A DNA stretch of 64,000 nt from Bispira polyomma (GCA_965649765.1 OZ287752.1:13020001-13084000), one strand, 5' to 3'; shown: positions 2,550 to 58,821, counted from the first letter of the stretch. Notes: a model not told the origin generated them from the sequence alone. Translations and numbers: made by a program.

Positions 2550-5500
2550 ATTTACTTGTTAAGATATTATAGAAAATTATTCATATTATTAGCATACATA
2601 CGTCAATGTTCCTCGATGTGTGTGGTACATGTATTATGTTATATGTGGAACAAATAAGGAAATTATCCATGATCCAGGGCGCCTTTATGTCAATAGGAAT
2701 ATAAGGAGGGCAACTAATATACTTGACTGCCTGATATCTAAACATATGTGTATATATTCTGTGTTTACAATACAATAGTCTATTTCTTACAGAAATTAAA
2801 GAACGAAACCACATTTTTTGTTTCCCCTTTGCAAATATTAACAGTTTAGATTTTGCAAAAAAAACTTTACTTTTTAATATTATTACTTTTTATATTATTA
2901 ATACTCTTTATTACTGAGGATGAGAAGTGATCATCCATTTTGATTGTTAGGGTTCTGAGAGCCAGATAAGATCTAATGCAATCAAGACAGTTTTATTTAG
3001 TCCAAACTAGTGTTTTAGGGCATAAAACATAAATCGGTCCATATCTAAAGGAATAGTCTTTAAATTATTTAATCTCATGAAACATTAGTAATACAAGAAG
3101 TTTGTAATAATAGTGAAGACACTGCAGATAAATAAATGTTCAGCTTCAATAAAAGTAACAATGAAGAAAGTTTTATTTGCTACCACCTATGATTTGTATA
3201 ATGATGTCATACATGTGTGCACTATTCAGCTGTTAGAAATAGTAAAAGGTTGACAACTTAGCACACACATGCCTTGTGCACTTCAAATTTAGTGTATTCA
3301 GGTTCGTTGAAAACATTGTAAATTTCTTTTTCAATTATGGACTGAGAATCTTTTTAGCAGGTTAGATTTGGCCTTTGATTCTTCCCTCAAGGTCAAGTGG
3401 CTTATAAATTGCTCATTATGGGTCATTCCCATTAGAAAAACATTTAAGATTTGACCCTCCATCAAGATAAAATGACTGTCTCCAATAATGTAAGGCCCTT
3501 AGAAAAAAATTATACAACAAAGTATGCAGATTATGAATCACAAATGTAATCTAATCTAATAAATTTAGTCATAGCACTTAATCTAAAAAAAGTCAGTAAA
3601 ATTTCACTAAAAGTAGGATTTAAATAAAATTTAGTAAACTATAAGGATGATACAACCAGTGTTAATATTGTCAGATTAATAAACTGGCCATTTCAATCCA
3701 TCACAGTTCTTTACTTTTGTATTAATATACTCAAAGCCCTGGACAGCTATAAATGGCTTAATGTCATTTATAGACAGGGTACACAGTAGACTCCAGTCCA
3801 GTTATTAATTAGGTACATGCAATATGTTATCACAAAAATGTTTCTCACATCGAAGTATTTAAAGTTCCTTTCATTTAGTACATACACAACTTAAGTTTTG
3901 TTCTTCTATACATCTGTAGGTTTCATGCAGCAGATCCTCAGTTTATGGTTACATATGTCACTTGCTGCAATGACAATGTTATACACATTTAAAGTATCTG
4001 AATAAAAAGTTAAGTTAAAATCAATTCAAACTATTCTTTGCACAGGACGTTATGACATTTGGATATAGTTATTTTAGGAGTATCAATTATTTAATGGCCA
4101 TACCTTTAAATCTGCATACTCAGCTGGTGGTGTTGGTTCTTCCGGTTTTTCATCTCATAGTTGCCGATTCCATGTGTAGATGTTACATTCTCATATGTTG
4201 TTGGACTTTGATTCTTAAAAATATGTCAAAATTAAATAACAACATGTCATTGCATTACATTGCATAAAGTCGTGTCAGCAATTTGGTTCTGGCTCCTTCT
4301 CAACAAAACAGTCAGTATAATTAGGGCAACTGTGAGTAAACCAACCATGATAGACAGGGCTGCTATTCCTGCTATTAGCCTGGTGTCTTTCCTTATAACA
4401 AAGATCTTCAGAAGGGGCTGAAAAAGGAAATTAAAATAAAGCTTACAATTCTAAACAAAAATCTGCAAGTACCAAGTGGAAAGGTAAAAACAAATGTCCA
4501 AGATCACAACTACAAATGATAACAATTACAGTCAGGGGTCAAAACTGTTGACCATATGTACCTGAAAAGGTTCCTGGTCACATCTTGGGTTTTTAAATTC
4601 CAAGACCCTTTTTTTCTAGATACAATCACAAAACATTTAAAAGATGCAAACAGAATAGACATTACATAAGTTCTAAAAAATTTAATTTATATTTGACTCT
4701 TGCGAAACATACCTCTATCCAATAACTCCAGTGAAAAACTAACAGGCTGTTGAATACCATTAGTCACAGTAACTGTATACTCTGTGTAGTCTTCTATTTG
4801 TACAGTATTTATCACAAGTTGTGAAATAAATATTTTTTTTTTTTTGAATTTACACCATCAGTAATACGTGATGCACCCATTTTGCTCCAGATAAAAGCTG
4901 CTTCAAGGTCAATGATTTCCGGAAAAGCTCTCACTGTGACATTAAGAGTGACTTGTTGACTTAGTCCAGCATAGAAAACTAAATCATCAGTGACAAGGAG
5001 TGGTGGATCTGAAGGTAGAAAAATATAAATCTAGTACAGGAAATTGTAAAAACAATCTGTATCTCTTCTTTTTTACTTCCACTGCATTCCCTGCAGTACA
5101 TCTACATAATTACTCGCAATATACAGCAATCTGTTTATCTCCTGTATCACTCCCCACTGTATTCCCTGCAGTACGCTTATAAGTCCCTGCATCAGTGTAC
5201 ACTGTACTCTCTATCACCAGTTCTATGTTCTCATGCTGGTCTGGTAGAGCCTGAGATGTGGCATCTTCATATTTAGATTCAAACTCCCATAACTGGCTGG
5301 TGATTTCCTCAGGGTTACCAACCTCAATGTTACAGTTAATAACAAGCTCTGATCCTTCTTCTATGGTGTCTGATGCACTTTGAGCTGATACGTCCGGAGG
5401 ATCTGAAACACAGAAGTAACATTTGATTAAAAAAACATTTAATTACATATCAAATATAGTAATGATAACATTTGAAATGATGAGGTTAGAATTTCTCAAA

Positions 5501-5555
5501 ATATAGATAATAGAATTTTTTCTGGCATTTAATGGCATTTTAATCTATAACTTAC

Positions 5556-5852
5556 ATCCAACATCCAGTGTTACTGTATCCCTCACTGTTGACTGCCCAG
5601 TAACATAACACTTCGCAACTTTGTTGTTCAATGTTCTGTCCACTGTCACTTCCAACACACTTCTCCTTGTCTTTGTATTACACATCCCCACCTCTTCACT
5701 GTCACTAGTAGAACTGACACTGTTCTCTCCTACAGTCCACTCCACATCCGCAGTTGGTTCAGCCTCATTAGTCACACAGGTGATGGTCACTACTGTGCTC
5801 TCAGAGACTAGATCAGAGGGAAACTCGGTCATTGTGATATTGGAGGCTTGAA
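5556..5852 (-). CDS. Ig domain exon (Ig5, copy A), open frame
   Basis: VTITCVT..VEW..AKCYV Ig signature; AG/GT boundaries; phase 1-1; 297 nt. Confidence 0.75.
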
Positions 5853-6897
5853 CTGTTAGATATAAAGAACTTAAAAACATGTTTTCTAGTGAACTTCATT
5901 GTCCATTCTTAAACCTGCTATTTCTGATTGATTTATGCTGAACAAAGTAAAATATATTTGAAATTCATATCTCATACAACAACAGTACTTTTTAAGAGTA
6001 CCTTATTGCGAAACATATTGTGACCAATACACGAGTATGAGGCCACTAAATTTAATTGTGATATACACTATTCAAAACTCAAAGGATCAGTTTATGGATG
6101 ACATTCCCTGTGCTTTAAAAAATTTTCAAAATATATTGACCCAGCCTTATTTATAACGACAGTTTTAGTAATTGAGAAGAGAATAGTTACTTAAGTTGAA
6201 CATAATATAACAGAATGTAACTTTTTATACAAATTTGTCAGACATCACATATAATGTTCATAAATCGAGAATGAAGAACACTAATATGTAAAAGCTCCAT
6301 GTTTCTCCTTATGGAGTTAGATCAGGTGATGAAGTACTTGTTTTGACCAGCGAATACAATACCGCTAATGATAAATGGAATATACTGTCAAAAATGAATC
6401 GTAGTCAGAGATGTGGAAAATTTCTCTAAAATTACAGAGCATGTAGATGAGTGTAAACAATTTTGGTGAAATTAACATTTGATTTATTTGTGAAGGGTTT
6501 CTTATGGTTTTGGATTGTATGTACCTATTAAGAAAAGTACAAACAGTGTTTTGGTTGTGTTCCAACTGTAATACCAGATGAGATTCTCGAAACCACTGTA
6601 AGACTTTTGCTGGTGCATTTGAATGTCTTGCTTACATATATCATAGCAATCTCAATGAAAACCTCATTGAAAACTTTAATGCACATTTAGGGATTGTGAA
6701 ATTTACACAACTTTGTTAAGTGCTATTGTGCTCAATATTTTCGTAAGACTTTTAATTCAAGGGCGTTGCAAAATATCTTAACAATTAAATTAACTTTGTG
6801 TAATTAATGACATTTCTACAATCATTTTAGTTGTCATTAATGTATAAAATTTATAATTCATTGTTTAGGTACTGAATAATGTAAGACTGTTACTCAC

Positions 6898-23131: not shown

Positions 23132-23896
23132 AAAGCAAGAGAAACTAGCATTCTGAGTGTGAATGAATGCTAAAAATGATATGCAGTTAAATAAATTGGT
23201 TAATGCCTACTGGGTGTATTGCTCCAATATTCCACATCCACCACTTTTTCAACTTTTTTCTGTGTTCAAGATTAGGAGTGTTGTATTTTAGAGAACACCA
23301 TTCCAGAATTGAGAATCTCAGATCATTAACAGAATGTCCCTTATCTGTAAAATGTTTAGACACAGGGGTTGATCTGCTTTCCTTTGGTTTTTTTACTGAG
23401 AGAATGTGTTCATACATTCTTGATCTGAATGCACGCCCTGTCTCACCCACATAGTATGTATTACACTTTCTACAAGTGATTAAATATACTATGTCACTTA
23501 GCTCACAACTTATTTGTCTGGATAATTTGACGAGTTTGTGAGTCTTGTTGGACACATTGCACTTTACTGATGTGTCTTTATGGATCAATTAACAATAAGT
23601 GCATCTGTCTAGTCTCGTGCAGTGTTTGCATCAGAGAATTTCTCCTGGGGAAATGGAGTGTCTGGTCTTCTCAAGTCCAGTTCACTTGACTGTATGTCTA
23701 ACCTGGACACAGCACTAGTCACAGTGGTATGACTGGCATCAGTTGAAATCACACTCATTGTAGAAAATACAAAACACAGGAATATATGTGTGTCAGTCAC
23801 TACTACTAGATCACTTAATAGATTGTGATAGGCCCATCACAATCTATTAAGTGATCTAGTAGTAGTGACTGACACACATATATTCCTGTGTTTTGT
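23132..23896 (-). mobile_element. Penelope-like element, internally deleted (N-terminal stub fused to GIY-YIG endonuclease)
   Basis: ORF 23187-23588 with IVYLITCRKC..YYVGETGR..RMYEH..HF..GH..ILE..PVGIN (PLE GIY-YIG). 15-bp TSD AGAATC(T/G)GACAATCT at 23117-23131 and 23897-23911. Terminal 62-bp inverted repeat. Confidence 0.85.
23187..23588 (-). CDS. GIY-YIG endonuclease domain of a Penelope-like element (fragment)
   Basis: VY-x-CxxC-YVGET motif; preceded by an RCTYC remnant. Confidence 0.8.
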   Translation of the reverse strand: MIHKDTSVKCNVSNKTHKLVKLSRQISCELSDIVYLITCRKCNTYYVGETGRAFRSRMYEHILSVKKPKESRSTPVSKHFTDKGHSVNDLRFSILEWCSLKYNTPNLEHRKKLKKWWMWNIGAIHPVGINQFI

Positions 23897-32292: not shown

Positions 32293-35200
32293 GCACCTAC
32301 TTGTGTCTGATCTGAACTCGTCATTCTTTTTCTGGCCGCCATTTTTTTAGACTGTAAAGAAATATTTGTGTACTTTTGTTCATTTTTATAGCTGATTCAG
32401 CCTTTTTTGTGAGAAAAGTGTGTGTATTATATAAACACTCGTGTTGTAGAACAAAATGATATGTGTTTGGATGAAAATATGTGCGACATGTTCTGAATCA
32501 AGGTTTAAGATCGCTGCGCACGTGTGTGAAAGAGTAAGGGTTAATTGGGACTACTGTAAGTTTTATTTATTCTGTCTGTTTTTTGCCTCGAATCCGGTTC
32601 AGGCTAGACCCCTTTCATTTAACCCAAGTAAAGCCACATGAATAACTCTCACGTGTATTGGCATAGCCATTTTTGTTTCCCTGATAATTGACTTAGTGTA
32701 GGTACTTTCTTCTAAAAAGAAACTGTCTCAGAAGAGGGGAAAATGTGGGCACTTGTTTGCACATTGGGATGAGCAACTACGTGACCTACGTGTAGAGGTG
32801 ACCACAAGGGTGAAAACCCTTGTGCCAAGGGTGCTCTAAAGTGTAACCATTGTGAATCAATGACAGTAGAACAAAAACGGAAACTGGAAAGGAGATGAGA
32901 GACAGAAAACAAGCCCCTGGTGCAGGGGAAGATGAGATTTTACTGGATTCTCCAGCATCGATCGGTACTGCACCAGGTCAGGAAGTATCTGGCCAACAGG
33001 AGAAATTACTTCTGGGACCTGATGAGGGCATAACCAAAATCACTCAAACAAACCAACCTACTGGCCCACCAAAGGTCCAGAGGTTTGACTTTGTGGACCA
33101 TACAGCTGTAGAGGTCCTCCAGCACATCCCGGGTACATCTACCATACTCCCAACCCTGGATTCTCAAGTACGCAAACGAGGTTAAAGCCGAAATGGCCAG
33201 ATTCCAGATTGAATCTGGTAAGAGAATGTCTGAGATACAGCAGACTTCCTTCCAATCGTCATTGGTTTTGCAGGATGTTTTGAAGGAACTACAAGTCTTG
33301 AAACAGAAGACAGATAGACCCCCACCGGTCATTACAGCACCAGCTGCCAAACTGGAAGATACTCCCGAACCCGGACCAGCACCAGATGCAGAAAAAGTTG
33401 TACCAGTAAAACCACCTAAACTGGTGACCAGCAAACCGGTGACCAGCAAACCGGTAACCAGTAAACTGAAACCGATTAACAAGAAGGGCACTGATAAAAA
33501 GACTGAGTCCTTACCGGTGGTGAAGAAAACCGACAAGAACCGGTCCGACAAGAAGCAGTCAGACAAGAACCGGGAACCGGAACCAAAGACCGGTCAAAAA
33601 AAAGAGAACCAGAGCAACATAAGAAACGATCTCGCTCCCGGTCAAGAGAGGACCCGTCCGAGAAAAAGATCCTATAGATCAAGAACAATCTCTAATGATG
33701 CTGAAACTGAATTCACCAGGGGATACCGGGAACCCCAGTACAAAACAGAGGAAAACATTATGAGTCTAAGAGACATAGAAATAAGAAAGATCTCAGGGAC
33801 AAACAAAAAGTTAAACACACTTCTTCTCCAGAATCAGACTCTTTCTCTTCCTCCTCAGAAGAACCGACTCCTCGTAGAAAACACCAGAGTCATTCCAGGA
33901 GCAAACCTACCAAACAAGACACTTCCCCAAAGAGAGATACTGAATTGGAACAGGGTGAATTGGGACAAACTGAATCCCCCTTTGAGGAGGCTTTGGAAAG
34001 AGCAAAGGCCATCTCCAGAGCATTTAAAACTCAGAATGATCTAGACTACTTTCCAACCTACCTAGAAACACTTAAAGTAGTTGGAAAGGTATTAAACATT
34101 GAGGAGTTGGACGAACCTCTAAAAGTAACCCTGGCGGACCTAATGTTTAGGGATCCTGAAGCAGCATGCTCAGACTCTCTGAAGACTCCTTCCTCAATGA
34201 AACAACCCTGCTTAGATCTGAAGGATAAAAGGGATGCCTTAGCGGCCCCGACCACAATCCAGACCCCAGGCGATCAATGGAAGATGCAACAGGGAGAGTT
34301 GCTAAAATTATCGAAATCGGACATTAAATATTACCCTCTACTCAAACCCACCTGATCGGTTATCCCACAGAGCCTTAAAGACAGCCTCAGGGGAATAGCG
34401 CAGAACAATCCAAAACAGTACACCCTGTGTTCGGTTTCACAATAACAGATAAAACAGATGGAGGGCAGATACAAAGAATGGCTGTGTAACCTCAACCATT
34501 CCTCCTACTTCATGACAGCAACTGAGACAGCCCTCATTAAGGCACAGGCGGAAACTGATACTGCCACAAAATATGAGAACATCGCAGTAGCTAGATGGAC
34601 CATGGTCAATTTATCGAAACTATTGGGCCATTTGACAGTGGATATCATGTATAGCATTGGGAACTCCATCTTACTCAGACGAGACGCTGCCTTGACAAAT
34701 CTACATCCTTTTGTGCCTACACACCTCATATCAGATTTAAGAGCTTCAAGTTTCCAGGGATCAGATTTTTTGAGGAGTCAATTGTTGAAGAGGCCCATGA
34801 GGCCATTAAATCAGACAAAAGGTATACAGCACCTAACAGGCGCGGAGAAGGCATCCACAAGCCATCATCCAATACCTCCACTACAGGATCCCACAGAAGC
34901 TCCTACAGACATACTCCGTACTCTTTCTCTGGCTCCTCATGGGGCAAGAACGAGCAGTATCGGTGTGTTGGTGGATGACAACAATACCAGAAAGTAGATA
35001 GTCAACAAGATTACTCTAACAAACAACACGACCAATATAAACCCAGAGGAGGCAACCTCAAGAGTCCTTCCAGTCACGGCACCACACAAATTTACTTTAA
35101 TGGCAAAGGAAGTGAAACTTATGGCATTGATACTAGGAATCAGACTACATCAGTATCTGGATGACTGGCTGATAAGGGCCCCATCAGCACATCGATGCCA

Positions 35201-36351
35201 CGAATACACACAAATGTTCATAGAACTGGTCACTTGATTAGGTTTAATTATAAACAGAGAAAAATCAGAACTCTCACCAAGCCAGGCTATCAGTTTCACC
35301 TCAAGAAAGAATCAGTCACTCTAACACTGGACAGATGTCAATAATTTGTAGACACAGCCTGGTCTCTATTAAAGCTCAACCACACCTCAGTGAGATCATG
35401 AATATTTATAATAGGCATCCTCGCATCAGCGGAAAAAGTCATCCCAGGAGGGAGATTTTAACTACGCTCCTTACAGTGGCACCTCAAAAACCACTGGAGG
35501 ACACACAAGATTTTAGAGAAATCAATCCCAATAGACGACTCAGTAAAACCTCACCTTCACTGGTGGTCGACCAGAAAGAACTTATTACAGAGAGACTCTC
35601 TGCACCCCAAGGAATACAATGTGCTCATGTTTACCGATGCCTCAAACGTCAGTTGGGGCGCACACTTTAATCAAGGTACAATAGGAGGTCAAAGGTTGAA
35701 CAACTCCTACACATCAATGTATTGGAACTAAAAGCAGTGTATTGGCGAATTGATATGGCGAATAACCACGTGGTGCAACTCCAACCAAACGTCGCTTGGA
35801 GCCTAACACATAGCCGGTCATTGCCGACACCCTGTCTCGAAGACATCAGATCACTCAGATGGAATGGTCCCTGTATCCTCACACATTCAGGAAACTGTGT
35901 CTCCGGTGGCACACACCTCTCATCGACACGTTTGCCACAAGCCACAACTTCTAACTACCACTTTACATATCTCCACTTCCAGATCCAGCAGCCTGGGTAG
36001 TGGACGCCCTCAACATATCATGGGAAAATCTGAACCTGTATTATTTTTCCCCGACAATCTTAATACCAAAAGTAATCCAAAAGATAAGGACTTACAATTG
36101 TCAAGTAATTCTAATAGCCCCAGGTTGGCCAGGCATGTCCTGGTTCGGGGACCTAACAGAACTGTCACAGGAAATACCTCTACTCATACCACCACACAGA
36201 AGACTATTAAAACAGTCGCTATCTCAAAACTTCCATCAACACCCAGCTTTTCTGAATCTACACACATGGTCTCTAGGAGCACCAATCTACAGAAACAAGG
36301 GTTTACGGCATCAGTGGCAGAAAGAATTGCTGGACCACAGAGACTATCAAC

Positions 36352-37098
36352 ATGAGCAGTTTTCAAGTCAAGTGCACCGTATTTCAGCGATGGTGTCAGG
36401 AAGAGCAGGTGGACGTCACAAAACCATCTATAGCTAATATAGCCGATTTCCTCATGTTTCCTTTTAACGAGAAAAACCTTAGACCCTCCACAATCGAAGG
36501 GTACAGAACAGCAATAGCGGATACTGTAAGTACCACACAGTAAGATATCAGCCACAATCGAGATCTCAGTCGACTTTTGACAAGTTTTCACAGGGATCGT
36601 CCCAAAAGCTCACGGGCATTACCTAAGTGAAACTTACAGGTAGTATTACATTAACTTATAAAACCACCATTTGAGCCCATGCGCAAGGTAGAACTAAAAT
36701 ACATCACATACAAAATTGTTCTTCTCATGGCGCTTGCATCAGGGAAAAGACGAAGTGAGATACACACCTGGATCGAAACGTTTACCAGGAATCTAGGCCA
36801 CTGGGAAAAGATATCGTTTGCAGCCTCACCAAGTTTTTTAGCCAAAAACCAGTCAGCAAAGAAAAGACCGGAATGTATCGGCCCGGTTATCAGCTCGGCT
36901 CTCACTCCTTCACTGGATCAAAATCTGACTACCTACAGAACATTATGCCTGGTCAGATCGTTACAAATTTATATGGAAAAAGCAGTAGAAATGAGGAAGG
37001 ACAGGAAACTCTTGTTCATCTCCTTCAAAAAAAGCCACTCCTCGGAAGTTAAAACCTCGACTATTTCCTCATGGATAAAATCTACTATCCAACTCTGA
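36352..37098 (+). pseudogene. Tyrosine recombinase of the DIRS element (disrupted)
   Basis: IADFL..LRPSTIEGYRTAI and LMALASGKRRSEIH..LCLVRSL..LFISF..TISSWIK; internal stops; C-terminal catalytic part missing. Confidence 0.8.
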
Positions 37099-39984: not shown

Positions 39985-42900
39985 ACCCTTATATGCTTTA
40001 TTACCTCTGGACATACCATGTCTACTAGTGTATCACAAGAAACCTTGATTTCAGCCATTGGCACCTAAGGTGTAGAATCAGCCACCTATATTACACCTGG
40101 AGCAGGGACACCTTTTCCCAAAAGTAATCTCAGTGATGAAACACTCCAACTACTAAATATTTTACCCAGAAAAAACATACCCATAATGATATGGAATTCA
40201 GTGTAATAGAATGGTTGGGAAATCCAAACATTCCTTATACCACATCCATTCGCATAAGAAAGGAATTAAATTACATCTGGAATGTCCCTTCCATTCACCC
40301 TATTGGCATAAACCAATATATATGAATTATATTCCCCTCTTACTGGTGTAATTATGTCCTTACACCCCCTTTTATTCCTTATTTTAAATTCAGTTTGTTT
40401 TATGGTTAAGCCTTTGATTTCTTTATTATTTTCAAGTAACAGAAATAAAATTTGACCACATAGTATAAATAGATATGGCGCCAATGGGTCACCTTGTTTG
40501 CAACCTCTTTCTATGTCAAAAAAGTCAGAGAGTACACCAACCTGTATAACGGAGGCTTTAAATGCAGTGTTAAACAGTGTTACCTATTTTATAAATTTTT
40601 CACTAAATCTAAAATATTTCAGAACACTACCCAAAAATTTCCATGAAATTGAATCGAAGGCCTTCTCAAAATCTATAAGCATTAATAGTTCATCCATGTT
40701 ATTTTTTTCTGTGTATTCCATAATGTCATATATTAAACAAGTGCTATCACCTATGAATCTACCTTCTAAAATCCCGGGTTGAGCCATTGAAATTAATTTT
40801 GATAAAACAGTTTTCATGCAAGACACTATAACGCTCGACCCTAATTTATATATTACACTTAGCAAGGAAATAGGTCGCCAATTTTTAAGTAGATCTCTTG
40901 GTTTGTCCCCTTTTGGTATGCAGTTTGTTATACTTTGCCTTAAACTCAGAGGTAGGATACCCCTAATGTAGCTTTCATTCAGGGCTCTTAATATATAATG
41001 TTTTAGTTTGCACCAAAAGACTTTATAAAAATCGGCCGGTAAGCCATCTATGCCTGGAGTTTTATTGTTCTTCATATTTAGAAGTGCTTTACTTAGTTCC
41101 TCTATTGTTATTGGACCATCTATTGCATTAGATCCCAGGTTAGATAATACACTGATATTGTTTGATGACAATTGTTCAAAAATTTTATCGTTTTTTTGAG
41201 AACAACTTTGCATAAAAACGCTTAACCTCATTGAGAATATCTTTTTGACATGTTAAGAAACCACCATTATCTACACGGAGTCTTCTTATAGTTTTATCAA
41301 TAAAATGTTTTCTTTCTAAACCACAAAAATATTTTATTGGTTTCTCATTAAGCAAGAGGTGTTTTGCACGAGAGCGTATCATATAACCAGTTATTTTTAT
41401 TTCTCTAATTGTTTCTAATTCTTTTTTCTTTTGATCAAGTACATCTAAATGGGTATTATTATTTTCAGTCTCAATGTTTTCTATTTGACTTTTAAGTTTT
41501 TCCTCTTGTAAACGTTCTTTTTTCTTTAAAATTGATTCTCCCCGAATTTTTAACAGTATCATTTCCAAGAAGGTGCTATCAGAAACAGTAAATTCAATTT
41601 TTGAGTCCTCCATATTATTTAGATACTCTGTGTTATAAACAGGTAATGCATACTGATGTTTTACTTCCATTATGGCTGTGTCAATAATGTCTATATAGTC
41701 CGATTTTCTTAAGAGGCTGCAATTAAGGTGCCAAATACCTATACCCCTCTCAAATTTGTTTATCAGTAAGGTTAACTCAACCGATGAATAGTCACTCCTA
41801 TAACTTGGTTTTATTATACAACTGTTTATTAAGTCGGTCAATTTAATGGAAGTTATAAAGTAATCTAGACGTGCTTGCTTAAAAGGGTTGCGACGACGCC
41901 ATGAGTATCTTTTTAGAAGTGGATTCCGATGTCTGAAAGTATCTATTAAGTCATGTGTTTTCATTGGGTCAAGCAAGGTTTTTCTTGACTGTGGGTTATT
42001 AATATTCACATAGTTACAGCTGTCTAACGAAGGGTTCAAAACTAGGTTGAGATCATAACATATCAAGATATAAGTTTCATCCGATTTTTCAATATAGTCC
42101 CCAATTTTTTTGAAAAATTGTGGACTCTCCTTATTTGGTGCATATACATTGATAAGTCTTAGTGATATATCTTGTAATTGTATATCTACTAAGAGAAGGT
42201 TACCATCTAAATCTTTATCTATATTTTTAATTTTGTATTCAAAGTTTTTCTTTATCAGGATTAGTACACCACGTGAATTTGTCTTGACACCATGGATTAT
42301 TATATCACAGTCATGGTGCATTGTAATATCATTTCCATCCGATTCCAAGAGGTGAGTGTCTTGTAGACATAAGATATTTGTAGCATTACTAAGGAAATAA
42401 TTTATCACATCAAATCTTTTTTTTTTATCTCTAATACCTTGGACATTTGCCGATGATACCTTAATCGTGTTATTCAGATAAGTACTGATAATTTTCTTTA
42501 GACAGAGAGCTCCGAAAGTGCAAAGCAAAGATTATAATAACATTTTCTAAATTCCATTTTAGCTTTGATAACCCCATCTCTAAATCGTAGGCACTATGTA
42601 ATGTGTTATATATAAAAATAATATAGGTTATATCTACCACATACAAATTTAAGTTCTTTTCAGCCAAACCATACATTTTGTACAATAAATCTACCACTGT
42701 AAATGAAATTGGAAAATATAAATATGAAATCAACATTGAAATAGTAACGAACAGTAATTTTAAATTATAAATAGTAAAAAAATATGGACATAACAGAGAA
42801 GAAAGAAGAAAAAAATTAAATAAATATTGGTGAATAACACACAAGTATAATCTTTACCAATCTTAAAATTACTAATAAAAACACTAATAAATGAAACACA

Positions 42901-48238: not shown

Positions 48239-50424
48239 CTGGTGTAAGAAATAGTGACATTAGAACCGGTTGCTCTAAACATATTGCTCCACCTATAGTT
48301 TTGGGATTTGCAGGAAGTAACCCAACTTCACAGATACACTAACAATGACTGAAAAACATGGCACTATACCTCCCTTTACATCAGTTGACAAATATCCCAC
48401 ATTGATGTGATGTTTGTATATATTATATGTATATATCTATACATATAATAAAAAATGGTAACATCATATTTGACTGATACAAGGTATATACAGACAGATT
48501 TATAAGATCTACTTACATTTGACAGTATAATACTTAGTGGCAGAGTCCATAGAGTAGCTCAGTTGGTCTGTGTCTGAAGAAGTAGCTGTACAGTAAAACT
48601 GGAGTCTGTTAATTTCCCTCTCCATTGTTATTGTTTGTACCAAACTGTTCCTGACAGACTCTCCTACTTGCGCTGTACCCGTACCATATCCTCTGTACAA
48701 ACTGATCACAGGTTCAGGGTTTCCATCTGCTGTACATGAAATCTCTCTTGTTTCTCCTTCTTTTAGGTCTAGACTGGAGTTTGCAATGATTGTTACTGTG
48801 TCTGGTGAATCTGAAAGTTTAAAGCAATATAACTATTTACTTTTTGTGGTAGATAATGTGACACCAGCACATAAATGAAATTTCCAACATTAATATTAAA
48901 CAGAACATTTTTTTTTTTTTTATTTTTATTTTTTTTTTTATTTCTACATTAATACATTATAATACAATTCACAATGACAACACAAATAAGAACAGTTACA
49001 CAGAGACGTATACAGTGGTATTATTACTATTATTATACATAGTGACAAAAGTATTAAAATTTACAAATCAGTTAATTCATTATTTACTAAACTTTGAAAA
49101 ACTCCTACCATATATTTAATTCTATACATTTCTTAGGATAGTTTTCAGGCCGTCTTTGATTTCAATGTTAACTATTTTAAAATTATCAGAGTAGTCGGGG
49201 AGTTGTAAATATAATTCAATCTTTGACTTTACCAAATGCAAATATTCACCAAACATTATTTGACTTTGAAAATTTTTTTTACCATTTACCCAACAAAATT
49301 ACCGTATTCGACGTAATTAGCGCTCAGTGCCCTCCGAAAATTGTTCTAACTCAACAAATTAAGTGAAACATCACATTCTAATTAGCGCACACTCAATAAA
49401 AAGTGAATGGTCCACCCCCAACTCCGATATCCAACTTGGCGGTAAATCCTGGTGTGTGTTTTCCATTATAAAACACCTGGAATCTCTCTCCACTATAATT
49501 ATCTGTTGTAAAAGATAAATATTTGAGAAAACAAGCCTACTCACAACTACAGTACAAATAAGAATCTTTATCCTCCTCATTTTTTTACCGCAATGTTTGT
49601 TTACCAAAGGGGGGAATGCTAAACGTAATTTACCACCTGTGGCTCAGCACACATATATGTTTGAAAAGCAAAATTTACTAAGTCCAACTTAAACTGAAAT
49701 CTATGACAGGTAAACTTTTGTGCAAAGTTAAGGATATAAATACAACATAATATTTGTATAAAGATCTTGAAAAATAGTGATAAGGTTGATTTGCTTTCAG
49801 TCAGTTTTATTATAACTACACAGTTTACGGTTGTACTCATTCAGCTTTTGTATTAACTCAGCGGATGTTGGATGGGGAGATGCAGAAGTTCCAGAACACT
49901 GTCTTATCAAGGCATGTGTAGATCATTGGGGGTAAATTCATTTAAAAATGTGCTTCTACTAGAATATGCTTTATTACTCTACACATTTTATGATTTTTTA
50001 TATTTCTTTTGGCATTTTTTTCTCTGAATATAACAGACTGCTTTTTTTAATGTATGATAATGCCACGTGAATATTACATATAACCGATACAGACTTCTAA
50101 AACCCCAATAATATCCTTGCTATATTTTTTAATTTTGTGAAACCACAAAAAGGCAAATTTAGTATACTATATTGTAAAGAGAACTAGTTTTTTTTTCTAT
50201 TAGATGGAAATGTGAAATTTGTGTTGGCTCCATATGACATGCTTCAGATTAAAAAAAATCCCCTTTAGTTTAATACAAATGAATCAAAATATAAAAACAT
50301 CACACTGTAGTTTAAACAGTTCTGTTTGGTGTCGACTTCACTCAATATAAATAAATTAAACAAAGTAGGATTATTTTAGACTAAAACTTAAGCTACAAGA
50401 TCAATCCAATGTTTGCTTTATATT

Positions 50425-51800
50425 TTAATGGCCTGGTGATCCTGGATCATCATAATTCTCCTCAATTTCCTCCTCTTCTGGTTCACTATATTCATTAGAG
50501 TCTAGCATGAGGGCATTTTGGTGTATTGCTGAGGTTATCAGCAAAAGTTGTTGATTCTCGAACCTCATTTTCATCAAACCCTTCAAATGGATCTTCGTCT
50601 TCACTGTCACAGAACAGCATTTGATCTTCTGTTCCATCCATGCTGTTACTAAGTCCATTTTTTTTGAAAGACTTCTGAATTATTTGTGGGGTAACAGAGG
50701 CCCAGGCTGTTTTGATCCATTCCAGCAGAGTAATTTTACTGACTGGCTTTCGATTTCCTTTTTTTGTCAATTCGACTTGTCCATCAACCAGCCATTCATC
50801 ATAAAGGTCCCTGAAGGCATCTTTGAATGGCCTGTTCCAAGACACATCACATGGTTGAAGTTTGCTAGTGCAACCTGGAGGAATGATGGCCAAATCGGTG
50901 TTGTACTTGACCCTCACTTCCTCCTTCACTCCTGGTGTGATGTGACCTGAAAAGCAATCCCACACAAGAAGCCTTCTGGTTACATTATTTCTTTTCCACA
51001 CTCTAAACAGCCACTCTTTAATAAGAGTTTGCCCATGCTTGAGGAGTCATTTTGATAAAAATACCACCTGGGGTATCCTTGAGAGGTCTAACACCCTTAA
51101 ATAGGACCATTGGTGGCAATTTAGTTCCATCAGCTAAAGCAGCCAGCATAACTGTGACTCGAGATTTCTCATGGCCAGTTGTCTGCATAGACACAGTTTT
51201 ACTGCCACATTCTTGGAGAGTGTAGTTTCCAGGCATGTCTAACCAGATAGGGGTCTCATCCATATTGCAAATATCAGCCAGATTGTAATTCCTGATTTTC
51301 CTCATTCTAGTCACATAAGTCAGGAAGTTGTGCATTTTTTCACCCAGCACTTCTTCACTCTTTTGAGCCATGTGGGTTGCCCTCCTAAAAGAAATATTGT
51401 GTCTTTTCATAAATGACCTGAGCCACCCACAGCTAGCCTTAAATGACTGGTTTCCATTGAGCTTATATAGTCTAAGACATTCTCTTTTCAACTGCTTTCC
51501 AGTGATTCTTGCACCTGCTTTCCTCCTTCTGGTGATAAATCCCTGAAGTTCAGCGTAAATGTCAGGATAGACCAGTTTTCTCCCTGCACCTGATTGTCTC
51601 TTTCTGCTGCCTTTATTATCCATTTACTGAAAAGATTTCTCAGATTTTCTCCACTCAATAACTCGCTTTCTGTCCACCCCAAACAATTTTGCTGCCTTTG
51701 AATTGTTTGTAGATTTGGCATATTCCACCACCTTTAACTTGAATGCTACGGTGTAAGAACTAATTTTGACACCTTTGTGTGATGGATTACTTGATTCCAT
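50425..51800 (-). pseudogene. pogo transposase (Brinker-like DBD, CENP-B HTH, DDE_1), disrupted
   Basis: ATG 51800, SYTVAFKLKVVEYA; FKASCGWLRSFMKRH; NMDETP, WDCFSGH, LQPCDV (DD36D as counted here); stop at about 51625 and frameshifts at about 51030 and 50530. Confidence 0.88.
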
Positions 51801-52148
51801 GATGAAAATTACTAAGAGGTGTTAAGAAAAATTTTCAGTACAATATATTATTACAACCTTATAATTATTAGTGTAAAATGAACAGGCTATGACAAGTTAC
51901 ATCATCTGTACTACCCTGAACGTGAATAATTAGTAAAGTAGAAAAGGTGTTTTTTAAATACTATAATTAGGTTTATCTATATGGGCTAAAGAAAAAAAAG
52001 AAACATCAAAACACAAAAAAAAAAAATCCTGTATGAATGTTTAATTTTCAACAACCCTCCCCCTGAGAAATATAAATGATCAACCCTAAACTATAAAGTT
52101 CAGCACTTGCTTCTTCGTTGTAATCTGTCAAGTGGATCAATCGACAGC

Positions 52149-52511
52149 ATGGCTTCAGTAGAGAACAGCGGTACTTTTAAATATACATCAAATGTCCGTG
52201 GTTTTCATGTTTATACAGATATTTGGACCCCAGTTATTGGTGAAACACTAGAATGTGAACAAGAACCTAGTAATGAATTTGACAAGTATGCAGTGAGTGT
52301 TTTAAAAAACAATTGTATTGTTGGGCACCTGCCCAAAGAAATATCTAAAGTCTGCCACTTCTTTATAAAACGTGGTGGTCAAATTACAGCTACAGTTACC
52401 GGTAAAAGAGAAAATAACGGTGTTGGATTAGAAATACCTGCAGAATATACATTCACTGGAACCAAAAAGGATACACAAATTCTGAAGCAGTTGTTACCAA
52501 GGCACAAATAA
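52149..52511 (+). CDS. HIRAN-domain-like protein (120 aa) inside the pogo TIRs
   Basis: VRGFHVY..GETLECEQEPSNEFDKYAVSV..IVGHLPKEIS matches the HIRAN pattern (EP.N.[FY]D..A[VI].V..[IV]G[YH][LV]P); open frame from ATG 52149. Confidence 0.75.
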   Translation: MASVENSGTFKYTSNVRGFHVYTDIWTPVIGETLECEQEPSNEFDKYAVSVLKNNCIVGHLPKEISKVCHFFIKRGGQITATVTGKRENNGVGLEIPAEYTFTGTKKDTQILKQLLPRHK

Positions 52512-53451
52512 TCCAGTAAGTTTAACACATTTTTTGGGAAATCTCGGATTTATTTATTTTTTTTCACTGCTCACTAATCCATACGGAGACGCGATTGAGA
52601 TCTAAGCTATGGAGAGTCATGTGACTTATTCAGTGGTGTTGATTGGCAGAAAGAGGTGGTGTGCGGTTAATAGAGCATGTGCGCTAATTACATCGAATAC
52701 GGTAGCAAGTTTTGAATCATATTAGATGTAGTGAATTTTTGTTCCTTAGATCCAGAGCCAAATAATATCTCACAAATAGTATATTCTGTATTATCAATAT
52801 TGAAAGCTACATTTGCCCACTGTTTCAGTTGCCCTCAAAATTTTCTGCTAGTAGCACAAAAGAAAAAATGATGATCAATTGTATCTATTGAGTCACAATA
52901 ATTACATTTTGGTGAAATCTCAATTTTCCATTTATGCAGATTTAAATTGCAGTTGATCACTCGGTTTATAATTTTATATTGGAAGGATTGAAGGTACGGT
53001 TCTTTTACCATGAAGTGGACCAAGTTAAATATTTTCTGTCAAGGAGCAACCTCAAGCAACGGATAGGCTTCAATCCATTTTTCTGTAGAAGATGGCTGCT
53101 GTAACTTCTCATTTATGGCTACCCAGTATAATACCTTATTATTTAATTTTGAGAAATCTGATAATTTACCCTTTACTAGAATTCTTGGCATTGCGCTTCT
53201 TGTCGTATTTGACATTAACATGGTTTTTAAAACATCTTTCCAAGCCTGTGGTATGGACCTAAAAAAATGATATTGTAAGTTAAAAAATCTATATTTAATC
53301 TAAACTTCGTGGCAAACTGTTCAAAAGATAGAAAACTGCCATTACTTGATAGCATATCACTTATTACTAAATTCTGGGTGTCGGCTTCCTGTAATTTAAA
53401 ATCTTGTGACTGTAAAGGTTTATTTCCAGAACATATAAATTTATTTTCAAA

Positions 53452-53706
53452 TCTAATCTAATCTAATCTAGTCGTACTTTTATAGCGCTTAATCTTTGTA
53501 CAACAAATTCTAAGGCGCAACAAACCCAAAACGTTAATCGCAAATCAAAAATAGTGGGCGGATGGAAGTCGTAACCAGGGAGACTACCGTAGATGGTTGC
53601 GACGGCTAAGGTGGAAAAGCCTGTTCAAAAAGATAGGCCTTCAGCTTACTCCTGAAAGAGGAGAAAGTTTGAGCCAGGCGAACATGATCAGGTAGGCTGT
53701 TCCAAA
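53452..53706 (-). mobile_element. 5'-truncated L2-like LINE 3' end nested in L1 ORF2
   Basis: LWNSLPDHVRLAQTFSSFRSKLKAYLFEQAFPP*, 3' UTR and (TAGAT)n tail. Confidence 0.8.
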
Positions 53707-54037
53707 GATAAATTCATTCATGATTTCATCGCCTGATTTTGGAGCTACACCATGAAATTGCTCCCAACATTCAAACATCTGCCTGTGAAAAAGTGTTAGG
53801 CATTTAAACCTCTGCGTTGGTGGTAATTTTTTCTTTATTTTACTTTTTCCTATATTTAATAGATACCAGGTTAAAAGTTGCCACTTTCCATGATTTTGAA
53901 CAAGCAAGTTTTTGATCCATTTTATTTTGGATACTATATTAATAGCAAATATATCAGGCATTTTAAGACCACCCATGGCATAGGGGGCAGTTATTGTACT
54001 CCTTTTAATTATTGCAGGTTTATTTTCCCAAAGAAAT

Positions 54038-56590
54038 TCAAATAAAATTCTGTCTATTCTTTTCAATATGTTTGTTGACAAAACATACTGACAGTAAATA
54101 GGTTATCTTAGGTAGAACTAGTGATTTTAATATTAAGATCTTGCCTTTCAAAGACAATTTCCTGCCTTTCCACATACTTATTGTAGTCCCCATTGCTTTT
54201 AGCTTATCTTCAAAATTCAGTGAAATTGATTCATTTAAGTTATATGAAAACCATATGCCTAAAGTTTTAAAGTTTGCTTGATTGATCATAATTTTGTGTA
54301 TTGACCTAGGTAATGTTACCTTTTGAAACCTCGATGTACCAATTGGAATTATTTTGCTTTTTTCAATGTTAATTTTTAATTCTGAACAGTTGTGAAATCC
54401 CTTGAGATACGAGATTAAATGAACGACAGAGTCAATATTACTTGTGAATACAGTTGTATCATCTGCTAATTGACAGATCTTATATTCCTTCTTTTCTATA
54501 TTTATTCCTTTTATCAATTTATTTTTTCTTATTGCAATGGCCATTATTTCTACAACTAGTAAAAACAAAAGGGCAGATATTGGACACCTTTGTCTTATTC
54601 CTCTACTTAACTGGAAATATTCAGAAAAGTCTCCATTATTACTTACACAAGATGCTATACTTCTATATAGTATTTTGATCCACTTTTGGAAATTCGGTCC
54701 AAAATTGAAAGCTTTTAATGTTTTAAAAAGAAAAGACCATTCCACACTATCAAAAGCTTTTTCAAAATCTAATAATACAATATAGCCAGGCAAATTTCTC
54801 AAATCTGTGTATGAAATAATGTCTTCTATCAATCTAATATTTTCCCCTATATATCTACTTTTTAAGTAACCTACTTGATCAGAATCAATTAATTTTGGTA
54901 GTACCAATTGTAGCCTATTTGCCAATGCCTTAGTTAAAATTTTGTAGTCAGTTTTGAGAATGCTTACTGGTCTGCAATTTTTTAAAAATCTTAAATCTTT
55001 GTTCGGTTTTGGAATAAGGTTAAGGATACCTCGCCGCTGATCATCTGTCAACAGTCCATTTTGAAAAGAGTACATAAAACTGTCAAACAATAAGTTTTGG
55101 ATATCTGGCCAAAAGAATTTATAAAAATTTGTTGTAAAGCCATCATTTCCTGGTGTTTTATCATTTTTTAAATGTTTCAGTGCTGCTGCAATTTCTGGTA
55201 ATTTTAGGGGACTATCACACATTTGTTTTTCAATATCATTTAAGTGAGGTATATGTTGTTGCTCTTTTATGAAATCTTCAATTCTTTCATCCTCCTCAGT
55301 GACCTTAGAAGAGTATAGGTTATAGTAGTACTTTCTTTCTTCTTCTAAAATGTCTTTAGGATTTGTTATTTCAGCTGTGTCATTACATATTAATTTCTTG
55401 ATATATTTGGAATTATAGTTTCTTTTCTCTAAGTTAAGGAAATACCCAGTATTCTTTTCTCTCATTTCAACCCATTGCACCTTTGACCTGAGGATTGCCC
55501 CTTCGGCCTTTTCATTTTGTAATTCTTCCCACTGAGTTTTTACCTCATTATATTCATGTATATTTTCATTGTTTTTTGCTATTTCCTTTTCTAAATTTTC
55601 TAGTTTTTGCTGTAAACACTTTTCCTTTTCTATTTTTTTCATTGCTTTTGATTTTGAATATGTTATAGTTATTGTTCTTATTTGGCACTTAACAAAATCC
55701 CATAATACATTTTTATTTTGTAAGTAGTTATCTGGGGTTATTTTGTGTAGTTCTTCTTTTACTAGACCAACATAAGTTTCATCATGTAGTAATTTGTTAT
55801 TAAATTTCCAATAACCTCTTCCTCTGCGCTGAGTATTAATAAGCCGCACCTTTAACTTAATTACACTATGATCTGATTTAAACCCTGGTTTAATAGAACA
55901 GTTTGATACCTGGGCTCCAACATTATTTGAAATTAAGAAGTAGTCTAACCTTGACTGAATCAAACCTGCCCTTGAGTTTTCTCTTCTTGTAAATTTTAAC
56001 TCTGTTGGATGTCTCAATCTCCATATATCACCTAAATTATACACTTCCATAATACTTATGATTCCTGATGCATATTTTGTCAAACTTTCATTACTTCCTC
56101 CCTTCTTGTCAAGTTTAGGATTCAGGTAGGTATTGAAATCTCCACCAATAATTACACTCTTATCAGCAAATTGTTCCAATAAATTTTTAAAGCTTTCCTA
56201 AAATTCTAACTGTAAATCCACCTTATCTTTTGTAGGTGCGTATAAATTTACTAGTAGAAATGGGTTTTCATCTATTTCACAATCTAGAATAATCATCCTA
56301 CCTTCATTATCTTTATGCACATTCAAAATTGTTAATTTGATATCATTTGGTATTAAAATTGCTACCCCTCTACTTTGATTGCTACCATGTGAGAAATATA
56401 TGTCTCCTTTCCATTCGTCTTATCACTTTTTTTCATCTAGTATAACAGAATGAGTCTCCTGTAACATTATCAGGCCTCGACGTTTGGACAGTAACCACTT
56501 AAAAACTGTGTTTCTTTTCTTAACATCCCTTAACCCTCTGCAATTAAAAGAGTTGACCGCTATCTCATCTTTATCTGAATACATCTTCAT
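54038..56590 (-). pseudogene. L1 ORF2 endonuclease/reverse transcriptase (main block; lesions at both ends)
   Basis: 713-aa open stretch 54038-56179 with APE C-terminus and RT; upstream APE start has a stop/frameshift. Confidence 0.88.
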
Positions 56591-57782: not shown

Positions 57783-58821
57783 TTACATGGAAGGTTTTAG
57801 TTCAGTTCTTACTTTCATCAGTGCTCGTCCCATCAGGTTGTTTCCTTTCCATTGTCTTTTATCCCATAACTTTTTATCTACAAGTGAAAGTCTTTTAATA
57901 ACTACTGGGTCATGCTCAGATGATAGTTTGTGGATTAGATGTTGGTCTCCAAAACGCTCTGCTATCCTTATAAACAGAAATTGTTCCATGCTGCTATATG
58001 ATTCTCCATTCACAGTAAATTTACACTGATAATGATTAGACAGCATACTGTACTTTGAGTAAAATCCTGTTACATCTCCTCTAGTTGGTGTGAACAACTT
58101 GTTCAAATCCAGCTTACAGTGTTGTTTCTCCAAGTCCCCAACTTCATATACCTCCGATTTCACAATTAACTTGTCATCTTTGAGATATATTCCTCTTGTA
58201 TCTTTAATTTCCTGTTCAAAACCAGCTTTTACTGCCTCCATCACCGGGAACAACTTCTTTCTTGCCTGTGCAATTTCCAATGGTAAATCTTCCACAGTTG
58301 TTATGCCGTGTTGATTACTTATCTCCCTTTTTATCCTCAGGATGCTCAGTTTGTCCTTAAAATTTGCTAATCTTGCTATAACAGCCCTATTCTTCTGGTC
58401 TGGTGTACCTCCTAATCTATGAATTCTTTCAAAAGATCGCCAGTCCAGTCTTAGAGGCCCTTGAGAAACTTGTTGCAAATATCCAACATTTTCTGCTCTA
58501 AATTTTCATCTCTCTCTTCAGCTACACCCAGAAATCTGATATTATTTTTCCTTTGAAACAGTTCTAACTTATTAACTTGATCGTGAAGCTTCTTATTTTC
58601 CTCTTTCAACTGTGTAATTTCTTCTATGTTCTTTGTTTTTGTCTGACAAAAGTCTTTTTTAAGGATTCAAGATTGCTCTGAATAGGTTTTATATGCTCAT
58701 TTAACTTCTCATCCAATACTTCTCTTAAAATATACTTGAAATTTTCATTTTGATTTAATAATCCTTCAGGTGAAAATAACATATCTGTGTGTAGGCGTTT
58801 TGGGGTACAAGGTGTAGCCAT
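57783..58821 (-). pseudogene. L1 ORF1 (coiled coil, RRM, CTD) fused to a C-terminal NADAR/YbiA-like domain
   Basis: ATG 58821; FERIHRLG..RAVIARL..EDLPLEIAQARKKLFPV..LKDDKLIV (ORF1p); then FYSKYSMLSNHY..SMEQFLF..FGD..DP..KRL and WKGNNLMGRALMKVRTEL (NADAR). Two frameshifts upstream. Confidence 0.8.

Follow-up and report, generated by a model that had tools for sequence, protein, structure and literature searches.

The window analysed here is a 64,000-nt stretch of the Bispira polyomma genome (GCA_965649765.1, OZ287752.1:13020001-13084000). At positions 49302-52702 it contains a Passer-type pogo element of 3,401 bp with two genes between one pair of terminal inverted repeats (TIRs). The 25-nt TIRs (49302-49326 and 52678-52702) are identical in 23 of 25 nt and TA flanks both of them. 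The element has inserted near the 3' end of a LINE ORF2 on the minus strand, which itself lies between exons of an Ig/FN3 gene. When the element and one TA are excised in silico, the frame of the ORF2 tail is continuous over the junction. Hence TA represents a true target duplication, and the pogo transposon with matching TIRs proposed in the original prediction is confirmed. The individual parts are as follows, with the underlying evidence in brackets.

49300-49301: left TA target-site duplication (LINE frame restored at the computed empty site)
49302-49326, plus strand: left TIR, 25 nt, starting with CCGTA (TIR comparison)
49327-50424: 1.1-kb region 3' of the transposase gene with no ORF of more than 90 aa (ORF and domain search)
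49379-49388, plus strand: subterminal copy of a 10-nt TIR motif (sequence repeat)
50425-51800, minus strand: transposase gene with three lesions (Pfam matches, contigs of sequencing runs)
51801-52148: AT-rich spacer of 348 bp separating both ATGs (sequence)
52149-52511, plus strand: stand-alone, intact HIRAN ORF, 120 aa (open frame, Pfam, predicted fold)
52678-52702, minus strand: right TIR, 25 nt (TIR comparison)
52703-52704: right TA target-site duplication (LINE frame restored at the computed empty site)
52705-56197, minus strand: decayed LINE ORF2 hosting the insertion (endonuclease, RT, zf-RVT), whose 3' end resumes left of 49300 (Pfam)

The two genes are arranged head to head, as had been predicted, with ATGs at 51800 (minus) and 52149 (plus) and 348 bp between them. 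Their promoter or promoters presumably lie within this spacer. Judged from the repeat, the motif copy at 49379-49388 is possibly a second transposase site. The 1.1-kb region contains no Ulp1 or HIRAN match, and neither inner TIRs nor introns were found at the gene pair.

Several other features of the window were recorded. Upstream of the LINE ORF2 at 54041-56197 lies an ORF of 240 aa (57786-58505, minus strand) that matches NADAR with 43.9 bits at a cut-off of 35.1; it may be an ORF1 to which this domain is unusually fused. Over 5113-63950 (minus strand) Ig and FN3 exons recur in scattered positions, as if nephrin-like genes stood there in a tandem array. At 32856-37095 (plus strand) a GC-richer, decayed element with overlapping ORFs resembles a tyrosine-recombinase retrotransposon by eye; five pieces of it gave no Pfam match. 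Furthermore there is a GIY-YIG ORF at 23190-23588 (minus strand), inferred to be Penelope-like, and a second decayed LINE at 40269-42531 (minus strand).

The transposase gene shows Pfam matches to BrkDBD, HTH_Tnp_Tc5 and DDE_1, each in a separate piece. It is broken by a stop codon (51624-51626) and by frame changes near 51024 and 50516. DDE_1 together with the HTH_Tnp_Tc5 DNA-binding domain, TIRs and TA duplication places the element in the pogo superfamily. In addition, it shares with Passer the combination BrkDBD plus HTH_Tnp_Tc5 (the definition also admits HTH_Tnp_Tc5 alone), a TIR of less than 30 bp with a CCGTA end, and the TSD. The catalytic spacing is DD36D in the window copy and DD35D in the match columns of its relatives; as far as described in PMC7386202 and PMC9976928, "almost all" Passer members have DD35D and one mollusc Passer is tabulated as DD36D. 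The window element differs from Passer by a second conserved gene, since the same two papers describe Passer as a single-ORF family. The term HIRAN does not occur in their main texts or in the available supplements. Yet 3 of the 30 rows viewed in the published Passer supplement (Amphimedon, Ephydatia and, on the reverse strand, Montipora) contain unannotated HIRAN coding motifs; these rows were read by eye over their first 400 nt, and further cases could lie beyond this point in the rest of the rows. For this reason we name the element Passer-type, by domain architecture, TIR end and TSD as read from its sequence, and do not file it as a member.

The element was found again in three sequencing runs (at most two samples of one study, contigs only, possibly from the source of the window). 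In runs X1 and X2 its contigs, which start at 49305 inside the left TIR, reach a depth of 457-635 along the full length, compared to 13-21 in neighbouring host contigs. This excess of about 30-fold, which is a depth and not a copy number, is uniform over both genes. One X2 contig (51726-52461) links the beginning of the transposase gene to the HIRAN ORF, with five differences from the window. The runs thus show a multi-copy family carrying both genes. At each of the three lesions of the transposase the majority contigs depart from the window, with length changes that fit a single frame of about 459 codons. Therefore the window element is a dead copy, diverged by about 1%, of a young family in which both genes were likely open. 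The original prediction had stressed the contrast between three lesions in the transposase and none in the small ORF. The contrast is real but carries no weight, because at the lesion rate of the transposase an ORF of 363 bp stays intact by chance with P = 0.45.

The ORF at 52149-52511 matches the Pfam HIRAN family (PF08797) with 32.6 bits at a cut-off of 24.7, and HLTF HIRAN chains are its closest solved relatives by sequence (E 1e-4). A structure prediction (pLDDT 90) retrieved the HLTF HIRAN domain (4xzg) as the top structural match with a TM score of 0.74 (E 1e-6). According to this model the 120-aa protein adopts the HIRAN barrel fold, in line with its predicted identity.

In HLTF, D94 senses the 3'-OH and Y72/Y93 clamp the final two bases (PMC5773155), while N90/N91 are described as essential for function (PMC11237066). 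The equivalents of N91 and D94 in the window ORF are N42 and D45. Among the 150 relatives examined N42 is conserved in 148, D45 in 144, H60 in 146 and K/R63 in 125, whereby the relatives were picked by a profile holding those columns. All four match HLTF pocket positions, H60 and K/R63 those of H110 and K113. The stacking tyrosines are seemingly altered. The position of Y72 is V21 in the window ORF and V or I in 135/150 relatives (motif alignment, by eye); that of Y93 is F44 and variable in the relatives (H in 60, Y in 14, F in 8 of 150). The binding mode may hence differ from that of HLTF. R17, H20, Y22 and W26 on the other hand are specific to the family and conserved in 139-145 of 150 relatives. 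These residues and the altered clamp would suit a repurposed fold serving another nucleic-acid or protein ligand, for instance in transposase regulation, without any 3'-end binding. The match of N42, D45, H60 and K/R63 to the HLTF pocket argues against it, and we regard this reading as improbable.

The likeness to the HIRAN domain at the N-terminus of HLTF/Rad5 thus lies in the fold and the N91/D94 pocket positions, whereas the transposon protein has neither motor nor RING domain. Among PF08797 forms it stands out by an R-G-x-H-V-Y...W signature, its location inside TIRs and a frequent fusion to a Ulp1/C48 protease. Its next neighbours are stand-alone HIRAN clusters of phages and bacteria; HIRAN has been linked to phage replication (PMC3417536).

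A profile built from the HIRAN ORF collected 3,112 protein clusters at E ≤ 1e-10. Of these the best 150 were examined and 71 scanned with Pfam; the scanned ones are either stand-alone HIRAN or HIRAN combined with Peptidase_C48. In metagenomes 343 stretches were confirmed, many of them copies from the same assemblies. Among the best 80 of these 343 loci a pogo transposase lies within 3 kb in 46, and a transposase or a TIR pair is present in 52. For the 30 loci flanked by 1.5 kb or more on each side, the respective numbers are 27 and 29. The TIR finder fired in 1/31 control flanks and in none of 15 window stretches. The complete example L001 shows a perfect 30-nt terminal match including TA, and both genes are open and in tandem, the transposase at 4245-5831 and HIRAN at 5953-6339. 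Of 73 two-gene loci, 47 were within coverage limits, and these 47 represent 25 distinct families. The nearest Atlas cluster to the ORF is most frequent in Porifera and one homologue is named as annelid. The paired loci look like animal host DNA within metagenome assemblies. The bacterial genome record G001 (L001-L002, L095-L133; about 16 Mb) has contigs of megabase size in which 65 HIRAN matches occur along with LINE and pogo sequence; like G002-G006 it seems to contain much contaminating animal DNA.

The genes are convergent in 18 of the 25 families, divergent in 5 and in tandem in 2. A bidirectional promoter, which had been proposed from the window copy, is consequently not supported as a feature of the system. 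HIRAN is fused to Ulp1 in 9/25 families, and of 16 long homologues 11 have the full set of three Ulp1 catalytic motifs. A HIRAN and Ulp1/C48 protease fused or adjacent in one gene inside pogo TIRs was seen in L005 (5947-7101), L025-L027, L035, L037-L043, L196 and L197. Moreover 34 loci, some of them duplicates, are TIR-bounded elements of 390-1150 bp with HIRAN and no transposase (L002, L007, L017, L040, L066, L084, L088, L091 and others). Many such derivatives carry a truncated HIRAN only, and several of 870-1020 bp retain a near full-length domain. In L100, L111 and L151 HIRAN pieces lie within TIRs starting with CAGT instead of CCGTA, a terminus that the literature gives for Tigger-like elements. 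The HIRAN gene may thus ride in other pogo families, too.

The pairing was also approached from the transposase side. A DDE_1 search of six host-contaminated genomes, each picked for having a HIRAN match, yielded 36 matches. In G001 HIRAN is found within 1.5 kb of 4/9 DDE_1 matches (P between about 3e-6 and 2e-5, with the bait among the four). In a midpoint-rooted transposase tree, from which seven matches were omitted as too short or unaligned, a separate pogo clade of 14 matches (support 0.978) has no HIRAN in its 1.5-kb flanks, compared to 12 of the 14 remaining matches. With wider regions included, 12 of 15 elements of the window transposase type carry HIRAN (8/11 without baits) and three lack it, although remote HIRAN-like genes would be missed by the profile. 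L188 shows no HIRAN in 11 kb, L184 is a deleted element without HIRAN, and L131 has a HIRAN fragment only, 2.6 kb away.

Both genes evolve under purifying selection, as judged from codon comparisons. Between L062 and L087 dN/dS is 0.127 for HIRAN (dS 0.65) and 0.181 for the transposase (dS 0.70); between L035 and L080 it is 0.19 and 0.17 at similar dS. Four HIRAN pairs without a nearby transposase gave 0.20-0.37. Near-identical copies within clusters of one assembly show a pooled pN/pS of 0.18-1.52, often near neutral, which is expected if selection acts on active lineages and not on inserted copies. The protein distances of HIRAN and transposase correlate (Mantel rho 0.49, p 2e-4, 25 families; rho 0.53, p 1e-3, 17 deep families). 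The HIRAN tree itself is poorly resolved and places the L062 group otherwise than the transposase tree. Module swaps and inversions in the history of the pair are hence possible.

These data bear on the view that HIRAN is a passenger without function, acquired from a nested element or from the host, that evolves neutrally. The truncated derivatives and the near-neutral pN/pS within assemblies would fit it. It is largely refuted and hardly credible in the light of dN/dS values of 0.13-0.37 between lineages, equal dS in both genes, the recurrence in 25 families and the lack of inner TIRs and introns. Taken together, the three outcomes that would contradict the predicted two-gene transposon (an ORF unlike HIRAN, its restriction to this copy, neutral evolution) were not observed. 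The pair recurs over copies and hosts under purifying selection, and represents a real, recurrent and selected two-gene variant of pogo/Passer.

We found no description of a HIRAN gene in transposons in the literature; existing annotation is possible, as Repbase and subscription literature were outside the scope. The term is absent from the available main texts of PMC7325037, PMC9587614, PMC6431247 and PMC3627910, and in PMC10530073 it appears in author names only. DNA transposons with accessory genes are known from Kolobok lineages (PMC9587614), TBE and Tec elements (PMC7325037), Fanzor-bearing Mariner (PMC3627910) and Ulp1-bearing Ginger (PMC2836005). They share with the present element a DDE transposase that is accompanied by another conserved protein with DNA or SUMO as its target. 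Their partners, as far as described there, are nucleases, helicases, recombinases and methylases, and no non-catalytic 3'-end binder is named.

What might the protein do? When Sleeping Beauty or mariner elements are excised, both the element and the flanks of the donor site are left with 3' overhangs of 3 nt, and the break is repaired by NHEJ or HR (PMC7827188). Pogo excision is assumed to proceed alike, with staggered cuts and short 3' overhangs on both. We propose, with a probability of roughly 45%, that the HIRAN helper binds these 3'-OH overhangs, with the donor break as the most plausible site, and thereby biases repair. The recurrent pairing, the purifying selection, the HIRAN fold and the conserved N42 and D45 speak for the proposal, as does the binding of isolated HLTF HIRAN to a nuclease complex after cleavage (PMC11237066). 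The element's own 3'-OH ends would be held by the transposase, so that the ligand left free would be the donor flanks. Capped by a HIRAN without motor, these would be protected from end-binding factors of the host. Repair would then be tilted from end-joining to recopying of the element off the sister chromatid or homologue, and copy number would rise. KolobokP has likewise been proposed to exploit sister-chromatid repair (PMC9587614). In the 9 fusion families HIRAN would bring a Ulp1-type protease to the donor ends. The protein is accessory, with cutting and joining in no need of it, since one-gene Passer elements transpose well: those of fish are highly active in human cells with transposase alone (PMC9976928). 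These one-gene elements and the three HIRAN-less elements of the window transposase type also count against the proposal, as do the altered tyrosine positions and the discordant HIRAN tree. Isolated HIRAN inhibited resection in an HLTF assay (PMC11237066), and 3'-end capping could equally delay resection-dependent repair.

A cap could instead sit on the 3' ends of the excised element, which likewise bears 3' overhangs (PMC7827188), protecting it from degradation, circularisation or autointegration. Its 3'-OH groups are the nucleophiles of integration according to the same source, so that a cap would block joining. This makes such a role quite improbable. In the paired-end complex of Mos1, moreover, the element 3'-OH groups are held in the active sites.

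Donor-end capping has a further competitor in a targeting or timing factor, whereby HIRAN on nascent-strand 3' ends at forks would bring or time the transpososome, and jumps during replication would gain copies. There is a precedent in TnsE of Tn7, a transposon-encoded factor that binds 3' DNA ends. TnsE is described as directing non-attTn7 insertion; being bacterial, of unrelated fold and acting via TnsC, it is an analogy and no relative. [quoted passage not shown] Contact to the transposase would be needed, yet one HIRAN family accompanies transposases that are only ~27% identical. Around the TA of 53 element insertions there is nothing but a common AT-rich palindrome. The absence of a HIRAN-transposase fusion among proteins of 528-2000 aa adds a weak argument. 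We consider fork targeting rather unlikely. Of the two roles in the original prediction, our analysis thus ranks 3'-end handling above it, and places the likely site at the donor break, not on the excised element.

Isolated HLTF HIRAN binds the Cas9 post-cleavage complex, blocks HLTF and is dominant-negative against HLTF removal of Cas9 (PMC11237066), and HLTF restricts HIV-1 via its HIRAN domain (PMC6511057). A free HIRAN could accordingly be an anti-defence decoy that outcompetes HLTF/Rad5 of the host; left unopposed, HLTF/Rad5 would remove the transposase from the cleaved DNA or restrict the element. SUMO-based control would be countered by the Ulp1 fusion with its mostly complete catalytic motifs. 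Such a decoy presupposes HLTF action on DDE transpososomes and appears distinctly unlikely. It overlaps with the donor-repair proposal, with the same ligand and a different step that benefits.

Copy gain of cut-and-paste elements is usually credited to host repair and replication timing, beyond control of the element. A conserved end-binding helper would make element control of copy gain directly testable via one 120-aa protein. Tentatively, and with considerable doubt, a large and old branch of animal pogo/Passer elements might be two-component: the transposase cuts, and a 3'-end sensor, alone or with a SUMO protease, would seize the break from the host and force gap repair, resulting in net copying. 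This would have been overlooked in the published single-ORF references, including those of the gene-delivery family. The second gene corrects the single-ORF picture of Passer. It also explains why metagenome protein sets hold stand-alone HIRAN clusters by the thousand, as these are likely transposon genes, and with a HIRAN helper the footprints or the efficiency of Passer-type vectors could be adjusted.
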